Origin: Synechococcus sp.
Lineage (GTDB): Bacteria; Cyanobacteriota; Cyanobacteriia; PCC-6307; Cyanobiaceae
NCBI GenBank assembly: GCA_047284725.1
Contig: JBJBEO010000001.1
Coordinates: 256,001-320,000 of the forward strand
DNA: 64,000 nucleotides
Direction of reading: 5' to 3'
The notes under the pieces are model-generated. The model had not been told where the DNA came from. It searched no databases and saw nothing but the letters and a program-made list of their open reading frames with translations. Positions 7,628 to 52,989 of the stretch are shown piece after piece (positions within the stretch are counted from its first letter, which is position 1; every line of letters begins with the position of its first letter). The translations under genes and the position numbers were made by a program.

Positions 7628-8488
7628 ATGACTGACGTTGTGGCGACACCCGGGTTGTTGGAAGCCTGTTGGCGCAATTTCATCCTTGGCGTGGTGCAGG
7701 GGCTGACGGAGTTTCTGCCGATAAGCAGTACGGCCCATCTCAAGGTGGTGCCTGTCCTGGCTGGATGGGGGGATCCCGGGGTCTCGGTGACCGCTGTGAT
7801 TCAACTGGGGAGCATTGCTGCGGTGATCGCTTATTTCCGCTCTGATCTCCAGCAAGTGCTGCGGGGGATTGGACAGGCCGTTGGGCGGGGGCAATGGCGC
7901 GAACCTGAGGCGCGCCTCGGCCTCGCGATGGCGGTGGGAACCGTGCCGATTCTGGTCGCGGGTTTCCTGATCAAGGGGTTCTGGCCTGGCTATTCCTCCT
8001 CTCCCCTGAGGAGCGTGCCTTCGATCGCGGTTGTCTCGATCTTGATGGCGTTGCTGCTGGCTCTCGCGGAGAGGCTGGGCCCAAGACTGAAAACGTTGCC
8101 GCAGGTTCAGGGTCGCGATGGCTTCGTTGTGGGTTTGGCCCAGGCCCTCGCCATCATTCCTGGCGTCTCCCGCTCTGGCAGCACCCTCACAGCATCGTTG
8201 TTTGATGGCTGGCAGCGGGCCGATGCCGCGCGCTTTTCCTTTCTGCTCGGGATCCCAGCGATCACGATTGCTGGCTTGGTCGAGTTGAAAGATGCCCTTG
8301 CCGATCCCAATGCCGGTGGCGTGGTTCCTCTGCTGGTGGGGATCGTCTCCGCCGCTGTGGTGTCGTGGCTGGCGATTGATTGGTTGATTCGTTACCTGCA
8401 GCGCCATAGCACGTGGATCTTCGTCGCCTATCGGCTCCTGTTTGGTGTGGCGTTGCTGGCCTGGTGGGCGACCGCGGCTTCAGACTGA
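7628..8488 (+). CDS. uppP: undecaprenyl-diphosphate phosphatase
   Basis: GVVQGLTEFLPISSTAH and PGVSRSGST motifs. Confidence 0.95.
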   Translation: MTDVVATPGLLEACWRNFILGVVQGLTEFLPISSTAHLKVVPVLAGWGDPGVSVTAVIQLGSIAAVIAYFRSDLQQVLRGIGQAVGRGQWREPEARLGLAMAVGTVPILVAGFLIKGFWPGYSSSPLRSVPSIAVVSILMALLLALAERLGPRLKTLPQVQGRDGFVVGLAQALAIIPGVSRSGSTLTASLFDGWQRADAARFSFLLGIPAITIAGLVELKDALADPNAGGVVPLLVGIVSAAVVSWLAIDWLIRYLQRHSTWIFVAYRLLFGVALLAWWATAASD

Positions 8489-8507
8489 GTTCAGAAGCGG
8501 TTTCGCC

Positions 8508-9905
8508 GTGTGGAATGAACCCTCTGCGGGCGTCGCCGTCGCGGCGCTCGATTCGGAGTCATCAGCGCGTCAGCCGGCGCCCGCTGTGGTTGTGGCTGTG
8601 GAGCCAGGCTCGATTGGTGAAGACCTGGGATTTGAACCGGGTGATCAGTTGCTCAGCATCAATGGCGTCAGGCCCCGTGACCTGATCGATTACCGCTACC
8701 TCTGTGTCGAGGAGGAGTTGCATCTTGAAGTGCGTGATGCGGCTGGGGTCCTTCACCAGGTCGCTTTCGAAAAAGACGCCGACGACGGGCTTGGCCTGGA
8801 GTTCAGTGAGGCCCTCTTTGATGGGTTGCGTCAGTGCAATAACGCCTGCCCGTTCTGCTTCATCGATCAACAACCGCCCGGACGGCGAAGCAGTCTGTAT
8901 CTCAAGGATGATGACTATCGCCTCAGCTTCCTCTATGGGTCGTATCTGACCCTGACCAATCTCACTGACGCGGACTGGCAACGGATCGAACAGCAGCGCC
9001 TGTCGCCCTTGTTTGTCTCGGTGCATGCCACGGCACCGGAATTAAGGACACGGCTGTTGAAGAATCCACGCGCTGGCCAGTTGATGGAGCAGTTGCACTG
9101 GTTCGCCCAGCGGCAGTTGCAGATCCACGCTCAGGTGGTGGTCTGTCCAGGCATCAACGACGGGGAGGCTCTGGAACACACTCTGACGGATCTGGCCGGT
9201 TTCGCGGATGGGGAGAGGCCTGCCGTGCTGTCTGCGGCAGTGGTTCCTGTTGGTTTGACCCGCTTCCGCCCCGCAGATGATGGCCTTGTGCCTGTGTCAC
9301 CGGGGGATGCGCGCGCTGTGATCGCGCGGGTGGAGCCCATGCAGCAGCAGTTTCAGCGCCGCTTGGGCAGTCGATTTGCCTGGTTGTCGGATGAGTGGTA
9401 TCTGATGGCAGGGCTTCCGCTGCCGCCGAGGGCCAGTTACGAAGACTTGCCCCAGCAGGAAAATGGTGTGGGCAGCATTCGCGCCTTTCTGGAGTCGCTT
9501 GATCAAGCCAGCATTCAGTTGCCGGAACGCATTGATGGGCCGTTACACAGCAGCTGGGTCGTCGGCCGCCTCGTGGATGGAGCGCTTGCACCAGTGACCA
9601 CGCGACTGAACGCAGTGGATGGGGTGACGCTGAATCTTTATGGGTTACCCAGCCCTTATTGGGGGCAAGATCAGGTCGTCACTGGACTCTTAACGGGACA
9701 GGATCTCCTCCAAGGTCTGGAGGGCTGCGATCTTGGTGACCAATTGCTTTTGCCTTCAGTGATGCTGCGTCAGGGAGATCCCGTGTTTCTCGACGATATG
9801 ACTCTGGCTGAATTGGAGGGGAAATTGTCTGTTCCGATTCGAATTGTGAATGGAGCAGCTGACATCGTGGCTTCAGTTCTGGGCCAAACCGCTGAAAGCC
9901 ACTAA
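8508..9905 (+). CDS. PDZ-containing radical SAM protein (TIGR03279/DUF512 family)
   Basis: N-terminal PDZ (PGDQLLSING), CNNACPFCFIDQ, KDDDYRLSFLYG, QENGVG. Confidence 0.9.
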   Translation: MWNEPSAGVAVAALDSESSARQPAPAVVVAVEPGSIGEDLGFEPGDQLLSINGVRPRDLIDYRYLCVEEELHLEVRDAAGVLHQVAFEKDADDGLGLEFSEALFDGLRQCNNACPFCFIDQQPPGRRSSLYLKDDDYRLSFLYGSYLTLTNLTDADWQRIEQQRLSPLFVSVHATAPELRTRLLKNPRAGQLMEQLHWFAQRQLQIHAQVVVCPGINDGEALEHTLTDLAGFADGERPAVLSAAVVPVGLTRFRPADDGLVPVSPGDARAVIARVEPMQQQFQRRLGSRFAWLSDEWYLMAGLPLPPRASYEDLPQQENGVGSIRAFLESLDQASIQLPERIDGPLHSSWVVGRLVDGALAPVTTRLNAVDGVTLNLYGLPSPYWGQDQVVTGLLTGQDLLQGLEGCDLGDQLLLPSVMLRQGDPVFLDDMTLAELEGKLSVPIRIVNGAADIVASVLGQTAESH

Positions 9906-9929: not shown

Positions 9930-11729
9930 GTGAGACAGCTTGCCGCTCCTCTCCTGTTGATTGCCGGGGCCCTGACAGTTGACCATGCTCATCTCGTCCG
10001 TGCTGAAGCACTCGACAAGCAGTCATCATCGGCGCCTGAGCAAGCCACCAATGTTGGCCCTCAGGATCAAACAGATCTCCCCAGCGCCATCGAGGTCCAT
10101 GGGTCACGTCCAAAGGCCGACGACTCCGTCCTGCCCCCGGCGGCCACCTCGTTGCCTCCAGAACTTGTTCCCCTGACGGCTCCCCCACCGCTGGCCTTGC
10201 CGGATCAACCTGACCAGGTCAAGATTCGCGAGTTGCGTCCTCTGACACTTGAGGAAGCTGAGCAACTGGCCGAAGTCAACAATCCGAGTTTGAAGGCAGC
10301 CGCCAGCCAGGTCGAGCAGGCCAAGTCAGGGCTGCTAGCGGCTATTTCGGCCTGGTATCCCACGGTGAATCTCACGGCCAATGGCCTTCCTCAGTACCTG
10401 GCGGCAGACCAGTACCGCAATCCCGATTTTCTGAAAGTTCGCAATAAAGACAATCCCGCATTTGGGGAGACGCGCATTGACCCTGATACCGGAAAGCCAC
10501 TCAGTCCTTACACCTCCAGCACCCAGTGGTCAGCCAATTTTCAGGCTCAGGTGCAGTGGAATCTGATTGATCCAGCCCGGGTCCCTGCAATCGCTGCAGC
10601 TCGGGACACCTACGAGAAAGCGAGAGACACGTATCTGATCAGTCTTCGTGAGTTGAGGCTCAATACGGCCACTGAGTATTTCAATTTGCAGCGCCAAGAT
10701 GAGCAGGTGCGCATCGGTCAGCAATCCGTGCGTGTTTCGCTCGTCAGTCTCCGCGATGCACGGGCTCGGTTCGAAGCAGGTGTGGCCACCAAGCTGGAAG
10801 TGCTTGAAGCTGAAACACAGCTTGCACGTGACCGACTGCTTCTCAGCCGTGGACTTGGTAGCCAAGCCAAGGCGCGACGAAGCCTGGCAGCACTTCTGGA
10901 CTTGCCACAAGACATCACACCAACAGCGGCCTCGCCAGCAAGGATCACTGGGATCTGGCAGCCCTCCCTTCAAGAAAGCATTGTTGCGGCCTATGCCTTC
11001 CGCGAAGAGCTTGATCGCTTCATTCTCGACATTTCGATCAACAACAGCAATGCCAACGTGGCTCTGGCGGCAGTGCAACCGATTCTCAGCTTGGTGAACA
11101 CGTTCTCAACTTCCCGCACCCAAGGGCAGACAAACGTTCAGGGGAACCCTGATATGGCTGATTACTCCTGGAATGCCAATAATGTTGTGGCCTTGAATGC
11201 AACTTGGAATATTTTCGATGGTGGACGTGCCCGTGCCAATTATCGTCGGAATAAGCAAGCTGCACAGGAAAGCGAATTTAATTTCGCAACGGAGCGCGAT
11301 CGAATTCGTCAGGAAGTGGAAGACAGTTTTTATGATCTACGAACGTCTAATCAAAACATTCAGACGACGACGCGCGAAGTTTTGTCGTCACGTGAATCAT
11401 TACGCTTGTCACGTCTTCGTTTCCAGGCTGGCGTGACGACACAACGAGAAGTTGTTGATACGCAGCGCGATCTGACGCAGGCTGAGGTTCGCTACGCCGA
11501 TGCGATCACCACTTACAACGTGTCTCTGGCTCAATTGCGCCGACGTACGGGTCTTGACCAGGTGAAGGCTTGCCCTGCTGTTTCGCTCAGTGCAATCAAG
11601 CCGGTTGAAGATACTGACTACACAATCCCCATTGAACCCATACCGAACTTGCCGGCTTGTCAGGCCCCTGCCGTTGTCTCCACTCCTGCCCCGGCTCCTG
11701 TGTCCACCCCTATCCGTGGTCTTTGGTAA
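9930..11729 (+). CDS. tolC: TolC family outer membrane efflux protein
   Basis: Signal peptide; two OEP repeats (ARFEAGVATKLEVLEAE and LRFQAGVTTQREVVDTQ); Pro-rich tail ending PIRGLW. Confidence 0.9.
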   Translation: MRQLAAPLLLIAGALTVDHAHLVRAEALDKQSSSAPEQATNVGPQDQTDLPSAIEVHGSRPKADDSVLPPAATSLPPELVPLTAPPPLALPDQPDQVKIRELRPLTLEEAEQLAEVNNPSLKAAASQVEQAKSGLLAAISAWYPTVNLTANGLPQYLAADQYRNPDFLKVRNKDNPAFGETRIDPDTGKPLSPYTSSTQWSANFQAQVQWNLIDPARVPAIAAARDTYEKARDTYLISLRELRLNTATEYFNLQRQDEQVRIGQQSVRVSLVSLRDARARFEAGVATKLEVLEAETQLARDRLLLSRGLGSQAKARRSLAALLDLPQDITPTAASPARITGIWQPSLQESIVAAYAFREELDRFILDISINNSNANVALAAVQPILSLVNTFSTSRTQGQTNVQGNPDMADYSWNANNVVALNATWNIFDGGRARANYRRNKQAAQESEFNFATERDRIRQEVEDSFYDLRTSNQNIQTTTREVLSSRESLRLSRLRFQAGVTTQREVVDTQRDLTQAEVRYADAITTYNVSLAQLRRRTGLDQVKACPAVSLSAIKPVEDTDYTIPIEPIPNLPACQAPAVVSTPAPAPVSTPIRGLW

Positions 11730-32614: not shown

Positions 32615-32778
32615 GGTGGAGTGCCAGTTGAGTGGGCGTCGTCGGCTGTGCCAGGTCTGGAGCGTTCCCCAATCATCGCTGGTCTGGTTGCATCTGGTCA
32701 TCGATGGGCACTGTTTGCCTGCTGACCGGGGGGTGCATCTTGCCTACGGTCTGTGAGCTGTGTTCATCGCTCACGGTC

Positions 32779-33897
32779 ATGACGAGACGCTCTTCCGCTG
32801 CTTGGCTTGTCTCGATGGCTGCTCTTGCGATCCCTCTGCTCCCTCCTCGACCCGTGCTGGCAGCGTCTGCCGCTCAAGCCCTCCTGGCCCCGCGATCGTT
32901 CGTGGCGGAAGCGGTGAAGCGGAGCGGACCTGCTGTGGTGACCTTGGAAACCAGTCGGACGGTGTCCAGCGCCCGTTCGCGAGGTGTCCCAACCGGGCTG
33001 ATGCAGGATCCCTTCTTCCGGCGTTTGTTTGGCCTGCAGGCTCCTCGGCCTCAGTCAGCTCGCATTGAGCGGAATCAGGGCAGTGGAGTGATCTTTGATG
33101 CGTCTGGCCTGGTGCTAACCAATGCGCACGTCGTGGAGAACATTGATCAAGTGATGGTGGGCCTCCCCGATGGTCGCCGTGTGTCGGGGCAAGTGGTGGG
33201 TCAGGACAGCCTCACCGATCTGGCTGTGATTCGACTTGATCAACAGGGGCCGTGGCCCCTGGCTCCCCTGGGTGACTCCGATCAGTTGGAGGTGGGTGAT
33301 TGGGCGATTGCTGTTGGCAACCCATTCGGCTTGGAAAACACGGTGACGCTTGGAATCATCAGCAATCTCAACCGCAATGTGTCGCAGCTGGGAATCGCTG
33401 GGAAGCGATTGGATTTGATTCAGACCGATGCGGCCATCAATCCGGGCAATTCCGGTGGTCCTCTTCTCAATGCTGCTGGCGAGGTGATCGGCATCAACAC
33501 CTTGGTGCGTTCAGGCCCCGGAGCCGGCCTGGGGTTTGCGATCCCGATCAACCGAGCTCGCGCCATTGCTCGGCAACTGGTTGACTCCGGCAGGGCGAGC
33601 CATCCGATGGTGGGCGTCGGCTTGTCGCCTGTGCCTTCCATCCAGCCCGGTGGCAGTGCACCTCCTGGGGCTGTTGTGCGCACCTTGGTGCCCGGCGGCC
33701 CCGCTGTCCTGGCGGGACTTCAAGTGAAAGACGTGATCATCTCCATCGGTGGAGCGTTGGTGGAGGGGCCGCAAGATGTGGTGACGGCCATCGATCGCCA
33801 AGGGGTCGGTGAGCCTTTGGACCTTGTGGTTCGGCGTGCCGATCGGCGTCTGCAGTTAACAATTATCCCTGTGGACATGCGTGCGCTTCAGCGTTGA
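32779..33897 (+). CDS. HtrA/Deg serine protease with PDZ domain
   Basis: [25 protein letters not shown] and a C-terminal PDZ. Confidence 0.95.
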
Positions 33898-48650: not shown

Positions 48651-48860
48651 TTCGTCTCCAAAGCAGTTGATTTGGTGTTGTCTTTTGGAGTGAGGCATTG
48701 AAGTTCTGCGTTTGTTGCAAACGCAAAAACCTTGATGTGGGAATTGATTCCAGGCAGCGAAGATCCCTGCCGGATCATTGTTGGCCGTCTTGATGACAGA
48801 AGTGTTGGCAGTTTTTTTTGTGTTGTCTAAAAAAGGGTTGACGTCCTCTTTTTGCCGTCC

Positions 48861-49487
48861 GTGTTCAATCGTCTCGCAGCCGGCCTCCTCGCTGGCGCAA
48901 CTCTTTCCACCTTCGCTCTTGCAGCTGAAGCCGGCACCATGCGCCCTGTGCGTTGGAAGACCGGTGGCGCTGTTTGGACCACTACCTCCTCTGCTTTCAA
49001 CACCTTCTTCGAAGATGGTGAGATCACCGATCGTGGTCTTGAAGCAGGCATCAACGGTTCCGGCTGGACCGCGGATGAAATCCGCGACGGCATGACCGAA
49101 AACTATGACGTGGATCTGATCGGCGTTTCTCGCTTCCTCTATTCCGAGGAAGGCGAGCAGTTCCTCGACGAGCAGACCCGCAGCTACTTCCCCTACTGGA
49201 TGAAGAAGAAGACAGCTGTGGTCGCCCTGCGTTCCGCCATCATCGCCGACTCCGTCGATGGTCAGCTGTCGTCCGCCGGCATCATGCGCAATCTGCCTGT
49301 TGATTTCGCTCTGGCAGACAACGGTGCCTCCGATGGGGCTCAGAATGTCTGTAAGCCTGGTCTGGATGCGCCTCGCGACACCTCCCTGCTGTCTTGGTAT
49401 GTGTTCCTGCCCGCTTGCGTGCAGGCCAATCAGGTGGTCGACCCCGCTCCCGTGCGTCCTTCTGCACCGGTTCGTGGCCTCTGGTGA
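48861..49487 (+). CDS. exported protein (DUF1400-like)
   Basis: Signal peptide ending AEA; FLYSEEGEQFL and ALRSAII motifs; ends PVRGLW; followed by a terminator. Confidence 0.75.
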   Translation: MFNRLAAGLLAGATLSTFALAAEAGTMRPVRWKTGGAVWTTTSSAFNTFFEDGEITDRGLEAGINGSGWTADEIRDGMTENYDVDLIGVSRFLYSEEGEQFLDEQTRSYFPYWMKKKTAVVALRSAIIADSVDGQLSSAGIMRNLPVDFALADNGASDGAQNVCKPGLDAPRDTSLLSWYVFLPACVQANQVVDPAPVRPSAPVRGLW

Positions 49488-49550: not shown

Positions 49551-51764
49551 TTATGTAGGCGATGGTGGCTTGATGCCGACGATGCGTTGATGATTCAGCA
49601 CTTGTGGCAGTTGTTGTGAGCCGGCCTGGTTCAACAGCCTGGTCAGCAAGGCGACTTCGCGCTTGCCTTGTGTCCCTGCGGCAAGCAGCTGACGGTAGGG
49701 ACGATCCTTCCCCAGCCAACGCTCCTTAAGTGCGCTGTCGACCGGCAGGCTGAGTCGTTCCTCCCACTGGTCATGCTGCAGTTGCCAACCCTGATGTTGT
49801 AGTGCTTCCAGGAAGCTCGCCTGAGTGCCCGGTGGCTTCAGCCAGGTCTGCTCTCGTTGCAGGAGCTGGTGCAGGAGTTCCTGCTCCTCGGTGTTGAGAG
49901 GAGAGAGTCCCTTGAGTTGACGCAGGGCTGCGGCTGGTCCAAGGCCGGCGTTGGTGAACAACAGGCGCAGTTGGCAACCTGCGCCGCATCGTCTCTGCAG
50001 CTGCTTGAGCATCGCCGGATGGCTGAGTCGCTCGAGATCCTGCCGATTCAGCCTTCCGCCAACGATTTCAAAGCAGTGATCAGGTGGGAGTGTTTCCAGA
50101 TCCCGGTGATCGCCGACCAAGTTTGGGCGTTGAAGGGGGTCGAGCAGCTGCAGTTGTGCCTTGAGGCGATTGATGGCGTTGTCGGTTGGACAGAGGATGG
50201 TGAGCCCGCCCTCAGCAACGTTGGCCAGGGGATCGAGGCTCCAGAGCAAGGAGGTTCCCCCCAACATCAGGACCCGGTCCGTGCGCTTCCAGCGCAGGTC
50301 TTGCCAGAGCTTGCTGCGTAAATCCTGCAGTCGTTCGCCATCTTGACTGAGTTGGCGCTGCAGCCACCGCTCCATCTCTGGCACCTCGGGACCGCTGCTC
50401 ACCAGCAGGGGGTGCTCTTCGACAGCTTCGGCCGCGGCAGCCAGCTGGGCTGCACGGCGTTCCAGCATCCGTTGCCGTCGCTGGCCTTCCCAGCCTTGCT
50501 GACTGGGGGTCCAGAACACTTCTCCCTGTAGCGCAGTCGGGAGGTATTGCTGTGCAACCCAATGCTCCCGAAAGGCGTGGGGGTAGCGGTAGCCCTTGCC
50601 ATCGCCGAAGGCGTCGCCGTCGCGGTGGGCATCGCGTAGATGGCTTGGGACGTCCTGCCGGTCGCTGGCGCGGACGTGTTTAATCGCTTCGAAAAGACCG
50701 ATGGTGCTGTTGCTTTTCTCCGTGTTGGCGAGATACAGCGCTGCTTGGGCCAAGGGGTAAAGCCCCTCCGGAAGACCGATGCGTTCGAAAGCGGCTGCAC
50801 AGGCCTCCACCACCACAACGGCCTGAGGGTCGGCGAGACCGACGTCTTCTCCAGCTGCGATCAACATCCGCCGGAAGATGAAGCGCGGGTTTTCCCCTGC
50901 TTCCACCATGCGTGCCAGCCAGAAGAGGGCAGCGTCAGGATCGGAACCTCGCAGGGATTTGATGAAGGCGCTGATGGTGTCGAAATGGGCGTCGCCCTGT
51001 TTGTCGTACAGAACCGCCCGCTCCTGGATCGACTCCTCGGCGATGGTGAGGTTGATCTGAATGCTGTTGTCGTCATGGGGCGGTGTGCTCTCCACTGCCA
51101 ACTCGAGGGCGTTGAGGAGGCTCCGGGCATCACCGTTGGCGACGTTCACAAGATGATCGCTCGCTTCGTCGCTGATGTGCACCTGACGTTCGCCGTAACC
51201 CCGTTCTTGGTCGTTCAGGGCGCGCTGCAACAGATCGCGCAGATCGTTGGGGGCAAGGGTTTGCAGACGGAACAGGCGTGAACGGCTCACAAGGGCCTTG
51301 TTCACTTCGAAATAGGGGTTTTCGGTGGTCGCTCCGATCAGCGTCAGGGTGCCGTTTTCAACCCAGGGCAACAGTGCATCCTGCTGGGCGCTGTTGAAGC
51401 GATGCACTTCATCAATGAAGAGGATGGTGCGCAGACCATGGCGCTCGAGCCGTTGCCGGGCGTCATCCACTTCGTTGCGGAGATCCTTCACCCCCGCCAG
51501 AACGGCATTGAGACTGCTGAAGTGAGCGCGGGTGTGGTTGGCGATGATGCGCGCCAGGGTTGTTTTGCCGACTCCTGGTGGGCCATGGAGAAGGAGATTG
51601 CCAACGCGATCGGCGGCAATGGCGCGTCGGAGTAGGCGTCCCTCCGCCAGGATCGCGCCCTGACCGACGAATTCATCGAGGGTGCGCGGCCGCATCCGAT
51701 CCGCCAGTGGAGCCTGGCGTTGGCGCAGCTGATCGCCCTGATGGGAGAACAGGTCTGCCGTCAT
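49551..51764 (-). CDS. rarA: replication-associated recombination AAA+ ATPase (RarA/MgsA) with C-terminal extension
   Basis: [46 protein letters not shown]. Confidence 0.92.
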
Positions 51765-51852
51765 GGCGAGATTTCCATTCACCAATTTTGACCCTGTTCG
51801 GATCATTTTTTTTGTTTTGCATACCCATAATTCGATTGGACATGGAGTGCCT

Positions 51853-52989
51853 GTGAACCGTTCCGTTCGAGCCGTGGGTCTGTTGTCGCTGGGACTCGTG
51901 CTCACGGCCTGTGGCCCTTCCGACCCGCAGCGTCCACCCGTGGCGGTGGAACAGGCTCCTGTGCAGAACGCCACATTCACGGATGACGTGGATACGGTGA
52001 GCACGCTTGAGGCCTATGAGCTGGTGCAGCTGGCCGCTCAGACCTCCGGCAGGGTGCTGGAGCTCAAGATCAGCCAGGGCGATCAGATTGAACCTGGCCA
52101 GCTGTTGGTGGTGCTGGATCAGACCCAACTGCGAGCCGACCTGGCCGCGCAGAAAGCCAAGGCGGCCACGGCCAAGCTCGACTGGCAGCGGGAGGAGTTC
52201 CTGGCGCGGGTTGGCGCCTCGTCGCTGCGACAGCGGGACAGCTACCGCACGCGATACATCTCCGCCGCCGAGGAGGTGAAATCGCTTGAGGCCACGCTGA
52301 GTTACAGCAACCTCCGCTCCCCTACGGGCGGCACTGTGGCCGATGTGCAGGTGAAAGTGGGCGATGTGGTGCAACGCAACCAGCCGTTCACCAGCGTGGT
52401 GAAGAACAACAGGCTGGAAGCACGGGTCGAAGTGCCGGCGGTGTTTGGTGAGCGTCTCGCCATCGGCCAGCCCGTTCTGCTCACGGCTCCAGGCAGCTCC
52501 AAGGTGCTGGCCACCGGCACAGTCGATTCGATTGACCCCCAGGTGAATGCTCTGACCCAGGGGCTCCTGGTGAAGGCTTTGTTTGCGAATGACGATGGCA
52601 AGTTGCGCAGCGGCCAGCGGCTGCGCACGCGTGTGCAGTTGCAGTCTCAGCAGAAGATGTCGGTGCCGTTTGCGGCCGTGACGCAGACCTCCGGACAGAG
52701 TTTCGTGTTCCGGATGGGCAGCTTTGAGGACCTGAAGTCCGATCCCGGTAAAGCCGACATCGAACGGATCAGCAAGGGCATTGAACTGGGCAAGTTGCCG
52801 GCCAATACGCTCTTCGCGCTGCAGACCCCCGTCACGGTGGGCGAGTTGCAAAACAATCGTTACCCCATCACCAAAGGGCTGAGCCTGAATCAGAAGGTGA
52901 TCACCACCAACCTGCTCAATCTCAAACATGGGATGCCGGTGCAGCTCAAACCGGCTGGGGCCTCCTCAGCCTCTGCTCCTAAGAACTGA
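51853..52989 (+). CDS. RND efflux periplasmic adaptor lipoprotein
   Basis: Lipobox LTAC, lipoyl halves (SGRV...GD; SPTGGTV), LRSGQ; upstream of the RND permease. Confidence 0.92.
   Translation: MNRSVRAVGLLSLGLVLTACGPSDPQRPPVAVEQAPVQNATFTDDVDTVSTLEAYELVQLAAQTSGRVLELKISQGDQIEPGQLLVVLDQTQLRADLAAQKAKAATAKLDWQREEFLARVGASSLRQRDSYRTRYISAAEEVKSLEATLSYSNLRSPTGGTVADVQVKVGDVVQRNQPFTSVVKNNRLEARVEVPAVFGERLAIGQPVLLTAPGSSKVLATGTVDSIDPQVNALTQGLLVKALFANDDGKLRSGQRLRTRVQLQSQQKMSVPFAAVTQTSGQSFVFRMGSFEDLKSDPGKADIERISKGIELGKLPANTLFALQTPVTVGELQNNRYPITKGLSLNQKVITTNLLNLKHGMPVQLKPAGASSASAPKN

Follow-up and report, generated by a model that had tools for sequence, protein, structure and literature searches.

A short C-terminal ending, P[VI]RGLW, shared by unrelated exported proteins of Cyanobacteriia and associated with genes for YkuD-type L,D-transpeptidases

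Results

Two genes of the window with the same ending

The 64,000-nucleotide stretch of DNA analyzed here (the window; positions 256,001 to 320,000 of contig JBJBEO010000001.1) belongs to a marine Synechococcus whose genome (label G000) is a single contig of 2,581,549 bp with 59% G+C. Two exported proteins encoded in the window, a TolC-family outer-membrane channel and a small DUF1400 protein, end in the same hexapeptide, P[IV]RGLW, with a stop codon directly after the Trp. The same ending, called the tag below, is found on signal-peptide proteins from at least 24 unrelated families in the class Cyanobacteriia, and the genes of its carriers are associated with genes for YkuD-type L,D-transpeptidases. 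The tagged genes and their parts are listed below in window coordinates.

9930..11729, plus strand: gene for a TolC-family outer-membrane channel of 599 residues with a signal peptide, a tag carrier (open reading frame and PF02321)
11661..11708, plus strand: Pro/Ala-rich spacer QAPAVVSTPAPAPVST of TolC, residues 578-593, after the conserved ...LPAC (sequence)
11709..11729, plus strand: TolC tag PIRGLW (11709-11726) and TAA stop (sequence; G000:C1:267709-267729)
48861..49487, plus strand: gene for a small exported DUF1400 protein of 208 residues from GTG 48861, the reading frame being open also from TTG 48852 (PF07176)
49419..49466, plus strand: spacer VQANQVVDPAPVRPSA of the DUF1400 protein after ...FLPAC, which differs among orthologues while the hexapeptide stays (sequence comparison)
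49467..49487, plus strand: DUF1400 tag PVRGLW (49467-49484) and TGA stop (sequence; G000:C1:305467-305487)

The TolC open reading frame (ORF) matches PF02321 (OEP) in two stretches (E 1.3e-54), the two OEP repeats that mark the TolC/outer membrane factor family; matches to TIGR01844 and the NCBIfam TolC subfamily models are below cut-off. It starts with the signal-peptide-like sequence MRQLAAPLLLIAGALTV... and ends in ...STPAPAPVSTPIRGLW (also given as ...LPACQAPAVVSTPAPAPVSTPIRGLW). The ORF at 48852/48861-49487 matches PF07176 (DUF1400) in Pfam with an E value of 1.8e-5, has a signal-peptide-like N-terminus as well, and ends in ...DPAPVRPSAPVRGLW (also given as ...FLPACVQANQVVDPAPVRPSAPVRGLW). 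The tag is encoded by CCT ATC CGT GGT CTT TGG TAA in TolC and by CCG GTT CGT GGC CTC TGG TGA in the DUF1400 gene.

An initial annotation of the window had described both proteins as exported, dissimilar apart from a Pro-rich linker and P[IV]RGLW, and encoded by differing codons that spoke against a recent duplication of DNA. The ending, the linker, the codons and the signal peptides are as described, and the absence of a recent duplication is supported. The shared stretch is longer than had been claimed. BLASTP aligns only the last 26 residues of the two proteins, LPAC...P[IV]RGLW, a Cys among them, with 14 of 26 identical.

A pair of Cys residues precedes the spacer in both proteins (11598-11672 and 49356-49430), in the arrangement ...KAC-x29-LPAC in TolC and ...NVC-x21-LPAC in the DUF1400 protein. 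LPAC is kept in all TolC homologues, tagged or untagged. The pair may form a disulfide-closed loop at the base of the spacer.

Occurrence in the source genome

P[VI]RGLW followed by a stop ends 4 of the 28,063 stop-to-stop ORFs of at least 50 residues in G000, compared to 0.0035 expected from composition, whereas the motif is found 0 times in the interior of ORFs, compared to 0.41 expected. The carriers other than those of the window are two small proteins without a Pfam family, at the following genome positions.

2209226-2209771, minus strand: third carrier of the source genome
2436830-2437387, minus strand: fourth carrier of the source genome

Outside the window, an exported protein of the COP23 family (PF14218; G000:C1:1152009-1152797, plus strand) has a look-alike end, ...TSTQPTTPLW, and is possibly a degenerate fifth carrier.

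Carrier proteins and anatomy of the tag

After removal of the last 25 residues, 114 carrier ORFs fall into 28 BLAST clusters, three of which are singletons that represent chance ORFs. DUF1400, Fasciclin, Opacity-type eight-stranded barrels, MliC, FecR and Ferritin_2 are the Pfam families found among the carriers; most clusters have no family. DUF1400 carriers form several clusters and occur in several cyanobacterial families. By one crude heuristic, a signal-peptide-like N-terminus is present in 81 of 92 complete carriers, compared to 316 of 1619 control ORFs of G000, and several of the 11 carriers missed by the heuristic show visible signal peptides. A possible lipobox was seen in one carrier only. 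MliC is a lipoprotein; the signal peptide of the MliC carrier is of the ordinary kind and lacks a lipobox. The carriers include outer-membrane proteins, the C-termini of which would face the periplasm, judged from the TolC and eight-stranded-barrel families.

The 24 residues that precede the tag consist of 21% Pro, 18% Ala and only 0.6% Lys, and their mean content of Pro plus Ala is 39%, compared to 17% in control C-termini. Thus, the enrichment at C-termini, on signal-peptide proteins and behind Pro-rich linkers that was anticipated in the initial annotation is found on all three counts, with the caveat that signal peptides were called crudely. In the Opacity-type barrels of Cyanobium, the barrel ends in ...RFRFGG and is followed by a Pro-rich hinge of approximately 30 residues and then by PIRGLW. 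The wall-binding domain of OmpA sits in the same place, after a barrel and a hinge.

DUF1400 is the conserved carrier of the genus. Among its 120 closest homologues, 112 end in PVRGLW, four in PARPLW, three in PAQPLW and one in PVPGLW, while the spacer varies freely. TolC is an atypical carrier. Only two of the 120 closest TolC homologues have the tag, P0001 (the cluster of the query) and P0004 (...PACKASDIISAPVRGLW); the other 118 end in ...PACQASVLSSEG or ...PACEAPVPVVQG. Because so few are tagged, TolC appears to have gained the tag recently by a short extension, which suggests that the tag is a portable module. Variants found elsewhere are PVQGLW, PVPGLW, AVRALW, SDRGLW and possibly SPRALW, all of which keep Leu-Trp and the free end. 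The looser form of the tag is P-x-[RQP]-[GAP]-L-W, in which Leu-Trp and the free end do not vary.

Distribution across genomes

A DNA pattern for P-[VI]-R-G-[LF]-W and a stop-like codon, which also matches when TGG follows, was used with the reversed pattern as control. Each of the 24 other genomes of the genus is matched, whereas the control matches in none of them. Across the phylum the strict pattern is found in 42 of 401 genomes, all but one in the class Cyanobacteriia, while the control gives 9 matches by hand count. When AGR codons for arginine are allowed, 129 of 401 Cyanobacteriia genomes are matched, a number to be read against approximately 35 control matches, counted by hand, and a minority of matches that end in TGG and are due to chance. 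The tag was not found in the genomes of 216 non-photosynthetic relatives; the sole pattern match among them ends in TGG rather than in a stop.

A scan of a species-genome collection gave at least 119 stretches. The matches in cyanobacterial records are ends of long ORFs with true stops, and the named carriers among the matches listed belong to Synechococcus, Cyanobium, Aphanothece, Halomicronema, Lyngbya, Planktothrix and Tumidithrix. No real tagged ORF end outside cyanobacteria is present among the matches listed. Those outside cyanobacteria are short out-of-frame ORFs or have TGG after the motif, and three that are longer, from Mesorhizobium, an actinomycete and one untitled locus, look like spurious out-of-frame readings. 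A record titled Chitinophaga MAG (metagenome-assembled genome; locus L124) encodes a protein of the cyanobacterial 'PWRTxDxxNGF' carrier family that ends in PVRGLW, and is probably a mis-binned cyanobacterial contig.

As the initial annotation had supposed, no named family was found for the ending: Pfam and NCBIfam searches with whole proteins, and NCBIfam searches at E up to 10 with six tails of 40-50 residues, gave no model for the tail. The NCBIfam matches to the six tails are low-complexity noise only (OmpA hinge, TonB, SslE). A literature search yielded no published description of the motif, and the literature on envelope tethers and L,D-transpeptidases likewise yielded nothing on it. The tag itself appears to be undescribed.

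YkuD genes beside carrier genes

Neighbor clustering gave the first lead. At two loci with unrelated carriers of two lineages (L033 and L110), the next same-strand gene downstream of the carrier encodes a YkuD L,D-transpeptidase. Carrier loci were taken as 4 kb on each side of 80 pattern matches, which yielded 78 loci with 79 carriers in 630 kb. A YkuD gene is located within approximately 1.4 kb of the carrier at 11 of the 78 loci, which contain 17 YkuD ORFs in all; L110 is a further case of adjacency beyond these 11. At eight of the 11, the YkuD gene follows the carrier immediately, in the same orientation, with overlaps or gaps of up to approximately 105 nucleotides. At L247 the nearer YkuD gene is also downstream on the same strand, approximately 0.6 kb from the end of the carrier, and at two loci the neighbors are divergent. 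Five of the carrier genomes, each of 4.4 to 7.3 Mb, contain 1, 3, 3, 4 and 6 YkuD genes, or 17 in 28.8 Mb, a density at which approximately 0.4 YkuD genes would be expected in 630 kb. The sole YkuD gene of one genome (G249) is the neighbor of a carrier, as are two of the three in each of two others (G589 and G712).

The carriers that adjoin YkuD genes belong to four unrelated families: fasciclin proteins (two sub-lineages), a family without a Pfam match (L251, L255 and L331), the 'LSQL...GHDTY' family (L258) and the L067 family (L209 and L211). For the L067 family, coordinates point to the same divergent arrangement in four more genomes of that genus. A conserved operon, in which a tagged fasciclin gene is followed by an SNGC-type and then an SHGC-type YkuD gene, is found at four loci of family f8 (L239, L242, L247 and L252). 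When genes in 8-kb loci were clustered, YkuD was the only family of note to recur across carrier clusters (10 loci, 4 clusters). What recurs beside carriers is not a PDZ protein but an L,D-transpeptidase, which the initial annotation had not considered. An ABC transporter that seemed to recur beside carriers was rejected, as it reflects paralogy of nucleotide-binding domains and one orthologous pair.

The neighboring enzymes are of two types, with the active site SHGC[VI]R in type 1 and SNGCVR in type 2, where Asn replaces the His next to the catalytic Cys. In both types, a signal peptide is present and the catalytic His and Cys are retained. The type-2 subfamily is small; NGC is found in 8 of the best 150 representatives at 50% identity, the closest matches included. 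The closest solved relatives of the neighboring enzyme are an L,D-transpeptidase family protein (8da2, E 5e-15) and Bacillus subtilis YkuD (1y7m and 4a1i). None of the 150 YkuD representatives ends in W, and so none bears the tag itself. Of the four YkuD genes of the source genome, one of the SNGC type and one of the SHGC type encode signal peptides. Proteins with a PG_binding_1 domain were considered as partners as well; G000 encodes none. At a contig end (L291, 311-706, plus strand), a Thr/Pro/Ser-rich ORF that ends in ...NSPRALW, which may be another variant of the tag, is convergent with two tandem SHGC-type YkuD genes.

Reverse test and phyletic pattern

In a reverse test, 40 loci upstream of type-2-like YkuD genes were collected with an alignment of the type-2 enzymes (A1). 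At 12 of them the same-strand upstream ORF ends in the tag or a variant (seven PVRGLW, two PVPGLW, two PVQGLW and one AVRALW), and 11 of these 12 ORFs encode fasciclin proteins. By comparison, 22 of 9,654 ORFs of at least 100 residues in G000 have an LW ending. In four of the genomes (G481, G031, G663 and G690), the strict pattern had earlier missed the tag or given chance matches only, with AGT or TGG in place of the stop. The type-2 subfamily was rejected as the sole partner, as it does not track the tag across the 401 genomes.

Outside Cyanobiaceae, every genome with a true strict tag encodes a YkuD homologue (A1, E at most 1e-38; G613 by PF03734). An apparent tag genome without YkuD (G562) was discarded as a chance match ending in TGG. 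Within Cyanobiaceae, YkuD (PF03734) is present in 39 of 61 genomes. The small-genome genera sampled from this family (g20, g21, g23, g24, g161, g162 and others) have neither YkuD nor a match to the tag. The same is true of two genomes of family f3 and of a 2.1-Mb member (G657) of an otherwise tag-bearing genus. In two YkuD-free genomes (G195 and G277), the only DUF1400-like gene is 24% identical and has no spacer and no tag. Genus g27 is negative by the strict pattern, yet it has YkuD genes, DUF1400 orthologues that end in PARPLW and a paralogue that ends in PVQGLW.

Predicted complex of a YkuD domain with a tagged tail

The type-2 YkuD domain of locus L239 (residues 75-207 of P0241, alignment A1) was folded together with the C-terminal 33 residues of the fasciclin protein encoded upstream of it (P0243). 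Three runs gave interface scores (ipSAE) of 0.49, 0.51 and 0.50, compared to 0.02 for the best of three controls, a result classed as weak support. The pLDDT of the partner did not fall below 54, and at least 96% of contacts were common to the runs. The ipSAE mark is reached by 116 of 157 solved complexes and by 2 of 215 mismatched pairs; only 18 of these solved complexes, and both of these mismatched pairs, reach it with values of 0.60 or less. The counts hold only roughly for this fold, which used its own alignment.

Neighboring genes in the window

Directly upstream of the TolC gene, a gene at 8442-9905 (plus strand) encodes a protein with PDZ_6, Radical_SAM_2 and DUF512 domains. The radical-SAM part suggests a cytoplasmic location, and this protein is therefore unlikely to be the receptor of a tail in the periplasm; a PDZ domain beside the tagged TolC is nonetheless a striking coincidence. 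The gene at 32632-33894 (plus strand), one of three of its kind in the genome, encodes a Deg/HtrA-type serine protease that has a PDZ domain and a signal or anchor sequence. Convergent with the DUF1400 gene, and adjoining it throughout the genus, is an ORF of 817 residues (49551-52004, minus strand) with an MgsA/RarA AAA+ ATPase part at approximately residues 100-515; its last 300 or so residues have no Pfam match.

Discussion

The results presented here reveal that unrelated exported proteins of Cyanobacteriia are closed by a short C-terminal tag that has been maintained by selection. It is practically certain that the tag is real and functional. The best reading, for which we see about an even chance, is that the tag works through YkuD enzymes and, as an analogue of the Lpp box that lacks the lysine, anchors proteins to peptidoglycan. 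The tag would serve as a recognition element for periplasmic YkuD-type L,D-transpeptidases, which would fasten its bearers to peptidoglycan. On outer-membrane proteins, such as TolC and the Opacity-type barrels of Cyanobium, it would tether the outer membrane to the wall, and on soluble domains, such as DUF1400, fasciclin and MliC, it would hold the domain at the wall. In the source genome itself, the presumed link between tag and YkuD takes the form of co-occurrence only.

Two routes can be envisioned. Covalent attachment would require the protein to be the acyl donor. The Cys of YkuD would attack the Leu-Trp bond instead of the bond between diaminopimelate and D-Ala, Trp would leave, and the amine of diaminopimelate would resolve the thioester and become joined to Leu, in a sortase-like manner. 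The sober alternative is a non-covalent docking of the tag on the enzyme or the wall. A covalent link of the tag to the wall is considered rather unlikely. Similarly doubtful is the more general proposal of a protein-to-peptidoglycan ligation in which YkuD-fold Cys transpeptidases, including the SNGC subfamily, use ...Leu-Trp-COOH as acyl donor, release Trp and join the protein to diaminopimelate.

Several observations weigh against the tag as a YkuD-dependent anchoring box. There is no lysine or other amine in the tag, so Lpp-type attachment, the only proven chemistry by which YkuD enzymes attach proteins, is impossible for it, and we know of no precedent for a protein as acyl donor in a YkuD reaction. 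A YkuD neighbor is lacking at 67 of the 78 carrier loci. Since most of the adjacent cases are a single conserved fasciclin-YkuD operon of family f8, the number of independent associations is approximately four or five rather than eleven. None of the approximately 25 carrier genes in 10 Cyanobiaceae genomes adjoins a YkuD gene when coordinates are compared by hand, and the four YkuD genes and four carriers of the source genome are far apart. Family f2 and most of family f37 have a type-2 enzyme with no strict tag and no tagged gene upstream. Conversely, no single enzyme subfamily tracks the tag, because type 2 is absent from many tag-bearing genomes (Cyanobiaceae, f4, g32 and f23). The inclusion of tag genomes among YkuD genomes is consistent with YkuD dependence but is weak evidence, since YkuD is widespread and the lineages that lack both YkuD and the tag are a few clades with reduced genomes. 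Finally, the predicted complex passes only weakly, and the output gives no interface.

These observations leave room for other explanations, of which coincidence is the least credible. That two Pro-rich tails should resemble each other by chance or composition draws on the low complexity of the spacers and on nothing else, and it is already refuted by four terminal occurrences where 0.0035 were expected, by control patterns close to zero, by the retention of the motif in 112 of 120 DUF1400 orthologues and by the non-cyanobacterial matches, which, among those listed, are short out-of-frame ORFs or have no stop; there is next to no chance that it is correct. It is also very unlikely that the ending is a BAM beta-signal of outer-membrane proteins or a signal for secretion across the outer membrane. 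Barrel beta-signals typically have an aromatic residue at the C-terminus, and TolC and the Opacity-type barrels are outer-membrane proteins. However, a beta-signal is the last strand of a barrel ending in an aromatic residue, whereas the tag in the barrel carriers comes after the barrel's own ...RFRF end, from which a Pro-rich hinge of 30 residues separates it. Soluble domains (fasciclin, DUF1400, MliC and Ferritin_2) make up most of the carriers, 118 of the 120 closest TolC homologues do without the tag, and the spacing of the Gly does not fit the beta-signal consensus. The initial annotation favored a sorting, anchoring or docking signal of envelope proteins. A recurrent, selected C-terminal signal is what was found, and a peptidoglycan tether fits best among the alternatives that were offered. 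The PDZ-like receptor also offered there has found no evidence. PDZ domains classically bind free hydrophobic C-termini, and the tag could thus be a docking signal, allosteric activator or degron for a periplasmic Deg/HtrA, Ctp/S41 or RseP-type protease, of which G000 encodes three Deg/HtrA, two Ctp and one RseP-like protein with PDZ domains, all of ordinary type; beyond these, PDZ domains are found in an M61-like protein of G000 and in the PDZ-radical-SAM-DUF512 protein. Nevertheless, no gene for a PDZ, S41 or trypsin-like protein recurs beside carriers (approximately 110 loci of 3 kb and 78 of 8 kb), and the Deg, Ctp and RseP-type families probably occur in tag-free small-genome relatives as well. 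It is also hard to rationalize a degron or activator constitutively exposed on a long spacer in more than 20 families, outer-membrane channels included. A PDZ ligand is therefore improbable, if less so than a beta-signal.

The remaining alternatives accept a connection to the cell wall. The tag may dock non-covalently on another partner, such as peptidoglycan or an attached polysaccharide, the stalk of an SLH porin or an inner-membrane protein, with the YkuD neighborhood reflecting no more than a shared cell-wall theme. A spacer with a terminal hook would suit any tether, and this explanation accommodates the carrier loci without a YkuD neighbor (67 of 78), the separation of the two kinds of genes in Cyanobiaceae and the lack of a nucleophile in the tag. 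However, no further neighbor family of note recurs across carrier families, and the strict conservation of the hexapeptide, together with its need for a free end, suggests that it fits into a protein pocket and does not bind a glycan. Carriers of four unrelated families are associated with YkuD genes, in one genome with the sole YkuD gene present, and in the fold the tail was docked on the enzyme while the controls scored close to zero, albeit with weak support. Docking on another partner is unlikely on balance, although it is the strongest of the alternatives. Less plausible still than a PDZ ligand is a tag that regulates YkuD, or competes with it as a mimic of the stem peptide, and so tunes 3-3 cross-linking near tagged proteins instead of anchoring them. 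The association with YkuD in genomes and lineages, and likewise the weak support for binding, can be cited for such a regulator too, and the free C-terminal carboxylate of the tag resembles the end of a stem peptide. Unexplained, however, would be the position of the tag on the hinge of barrels and TolC, where OmpA has its wall-binding domain, and why more than 20 unrelated soluble domains should all regulate one enzyme.

To our knowledge, the means by which the outer membrane and periplasmic proteins are held to the wall in cyanobacteria, and by descent in plastids, is known only for SLH-domain porins. A transferable tag of six residues on more than 20 protein families would provide a second principle of tethering. 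If the proposal of a protein-to-peptidoglycan ligation is correct, an L,D-transpeptidase would carry out a sortase-like reaction, the outer membrane would have a second tether beside the SLH porins, and any exported protein, such as TolC, could gain anchoring by the addition of approximately 10 to 20 codons. The tag may represent a new class of substrate for L,D-transpeptidases and would be a simple handle to localize or immobilize proteins in the cyanobacterial periplasm. DUF1400 proteins, the small Synechococcus families at 2.209 and 2.437 Mb of the genome and the fasciclin proteins of filamentous forms can now be tested as wall-associated proteins.

Comparison with known systems

The closest parallel is the Lpp box. 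A box of six residues at the C-terminus of Dickeya dadantii OutB, which ends a dispensable extension, is necessary and sufficient for attachment of the protein to diaminopimelate, and the same holds for a beta-lactamase reporter (PMC12274547). Two YkuD enzymes attach both, through the terminal Lys (PMC12274547). The boxes of Lpp and OutB resemble the tag in being modular, approximately six residues long, at the extreme C-terminus after a dispensable low-complexity extension, and found on unrelated envelope proteins (PMC12274547). Dependence on YkuD is proven for the Lpp box (PMC12274547), whereas for the tag it is suggested by the genomic and phyletic association and a weak fold. The Lpp box ends in Lys, the epsilon-amine of which is the nucleophile (PMC12274547), whereas the tag ends in Leu-Trp, has no Lys and follows a spacer with hardly any. 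The Lpp box belongs to gamma-proteobacteria and the tag, for which attachment is presumed, to Cyanobacteriia. The tag shares with the Lpp box a short extreme C-terminal box on unrelated periplasm-exposed proteins but lacks the terminal Lys. It is not a member of the Lpp-box family, and may work alike.

In the sortase system, a Pro-rich spacer spans the wall, and a Cys transpeptidase cleaves inside the LPXTG motif and joins the new C-terminus to an amine of the wall. As with the tag, a short C-terminal motif is found on many unrelated exported proteins behind a Pro-rich spacer, and the chemistry proposed for the tag would be alike. However, a hydrophobic segment and a charged tail come after LPXTG, whereas nothing comes after the tag, its Trp being the last residue before the stop codon. 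No sortase is implicated here, and YkuD has a different fold. The PEP-CTERM (exosortase) and GlyGly-CTERM tags contain a transmembrane helix and a basic cluster and are removed by membrane proteases. They are likewise lineage-specific C-terminal tags on many unrelated exported proteins, but the tag has neither transmembrane helix nor basic cluster, and no such NCBIfam model matched the tails.

OmpA, Pal and OmpM (SLH) tether the outer membrane to the wall with folded wall-binding domains of 50 to 130 residues. The Opacity-type carriers of Cyanobium have the same order of barrel, Pro-rich hinge and wall-directed element, the last being a hexapeptide in place of a folded domain. The source genome also encodes two SLH porins. 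The tag is a candidate for an additional tether of the outer membrane in a phylum whose known tether is of the SLH-porin type.

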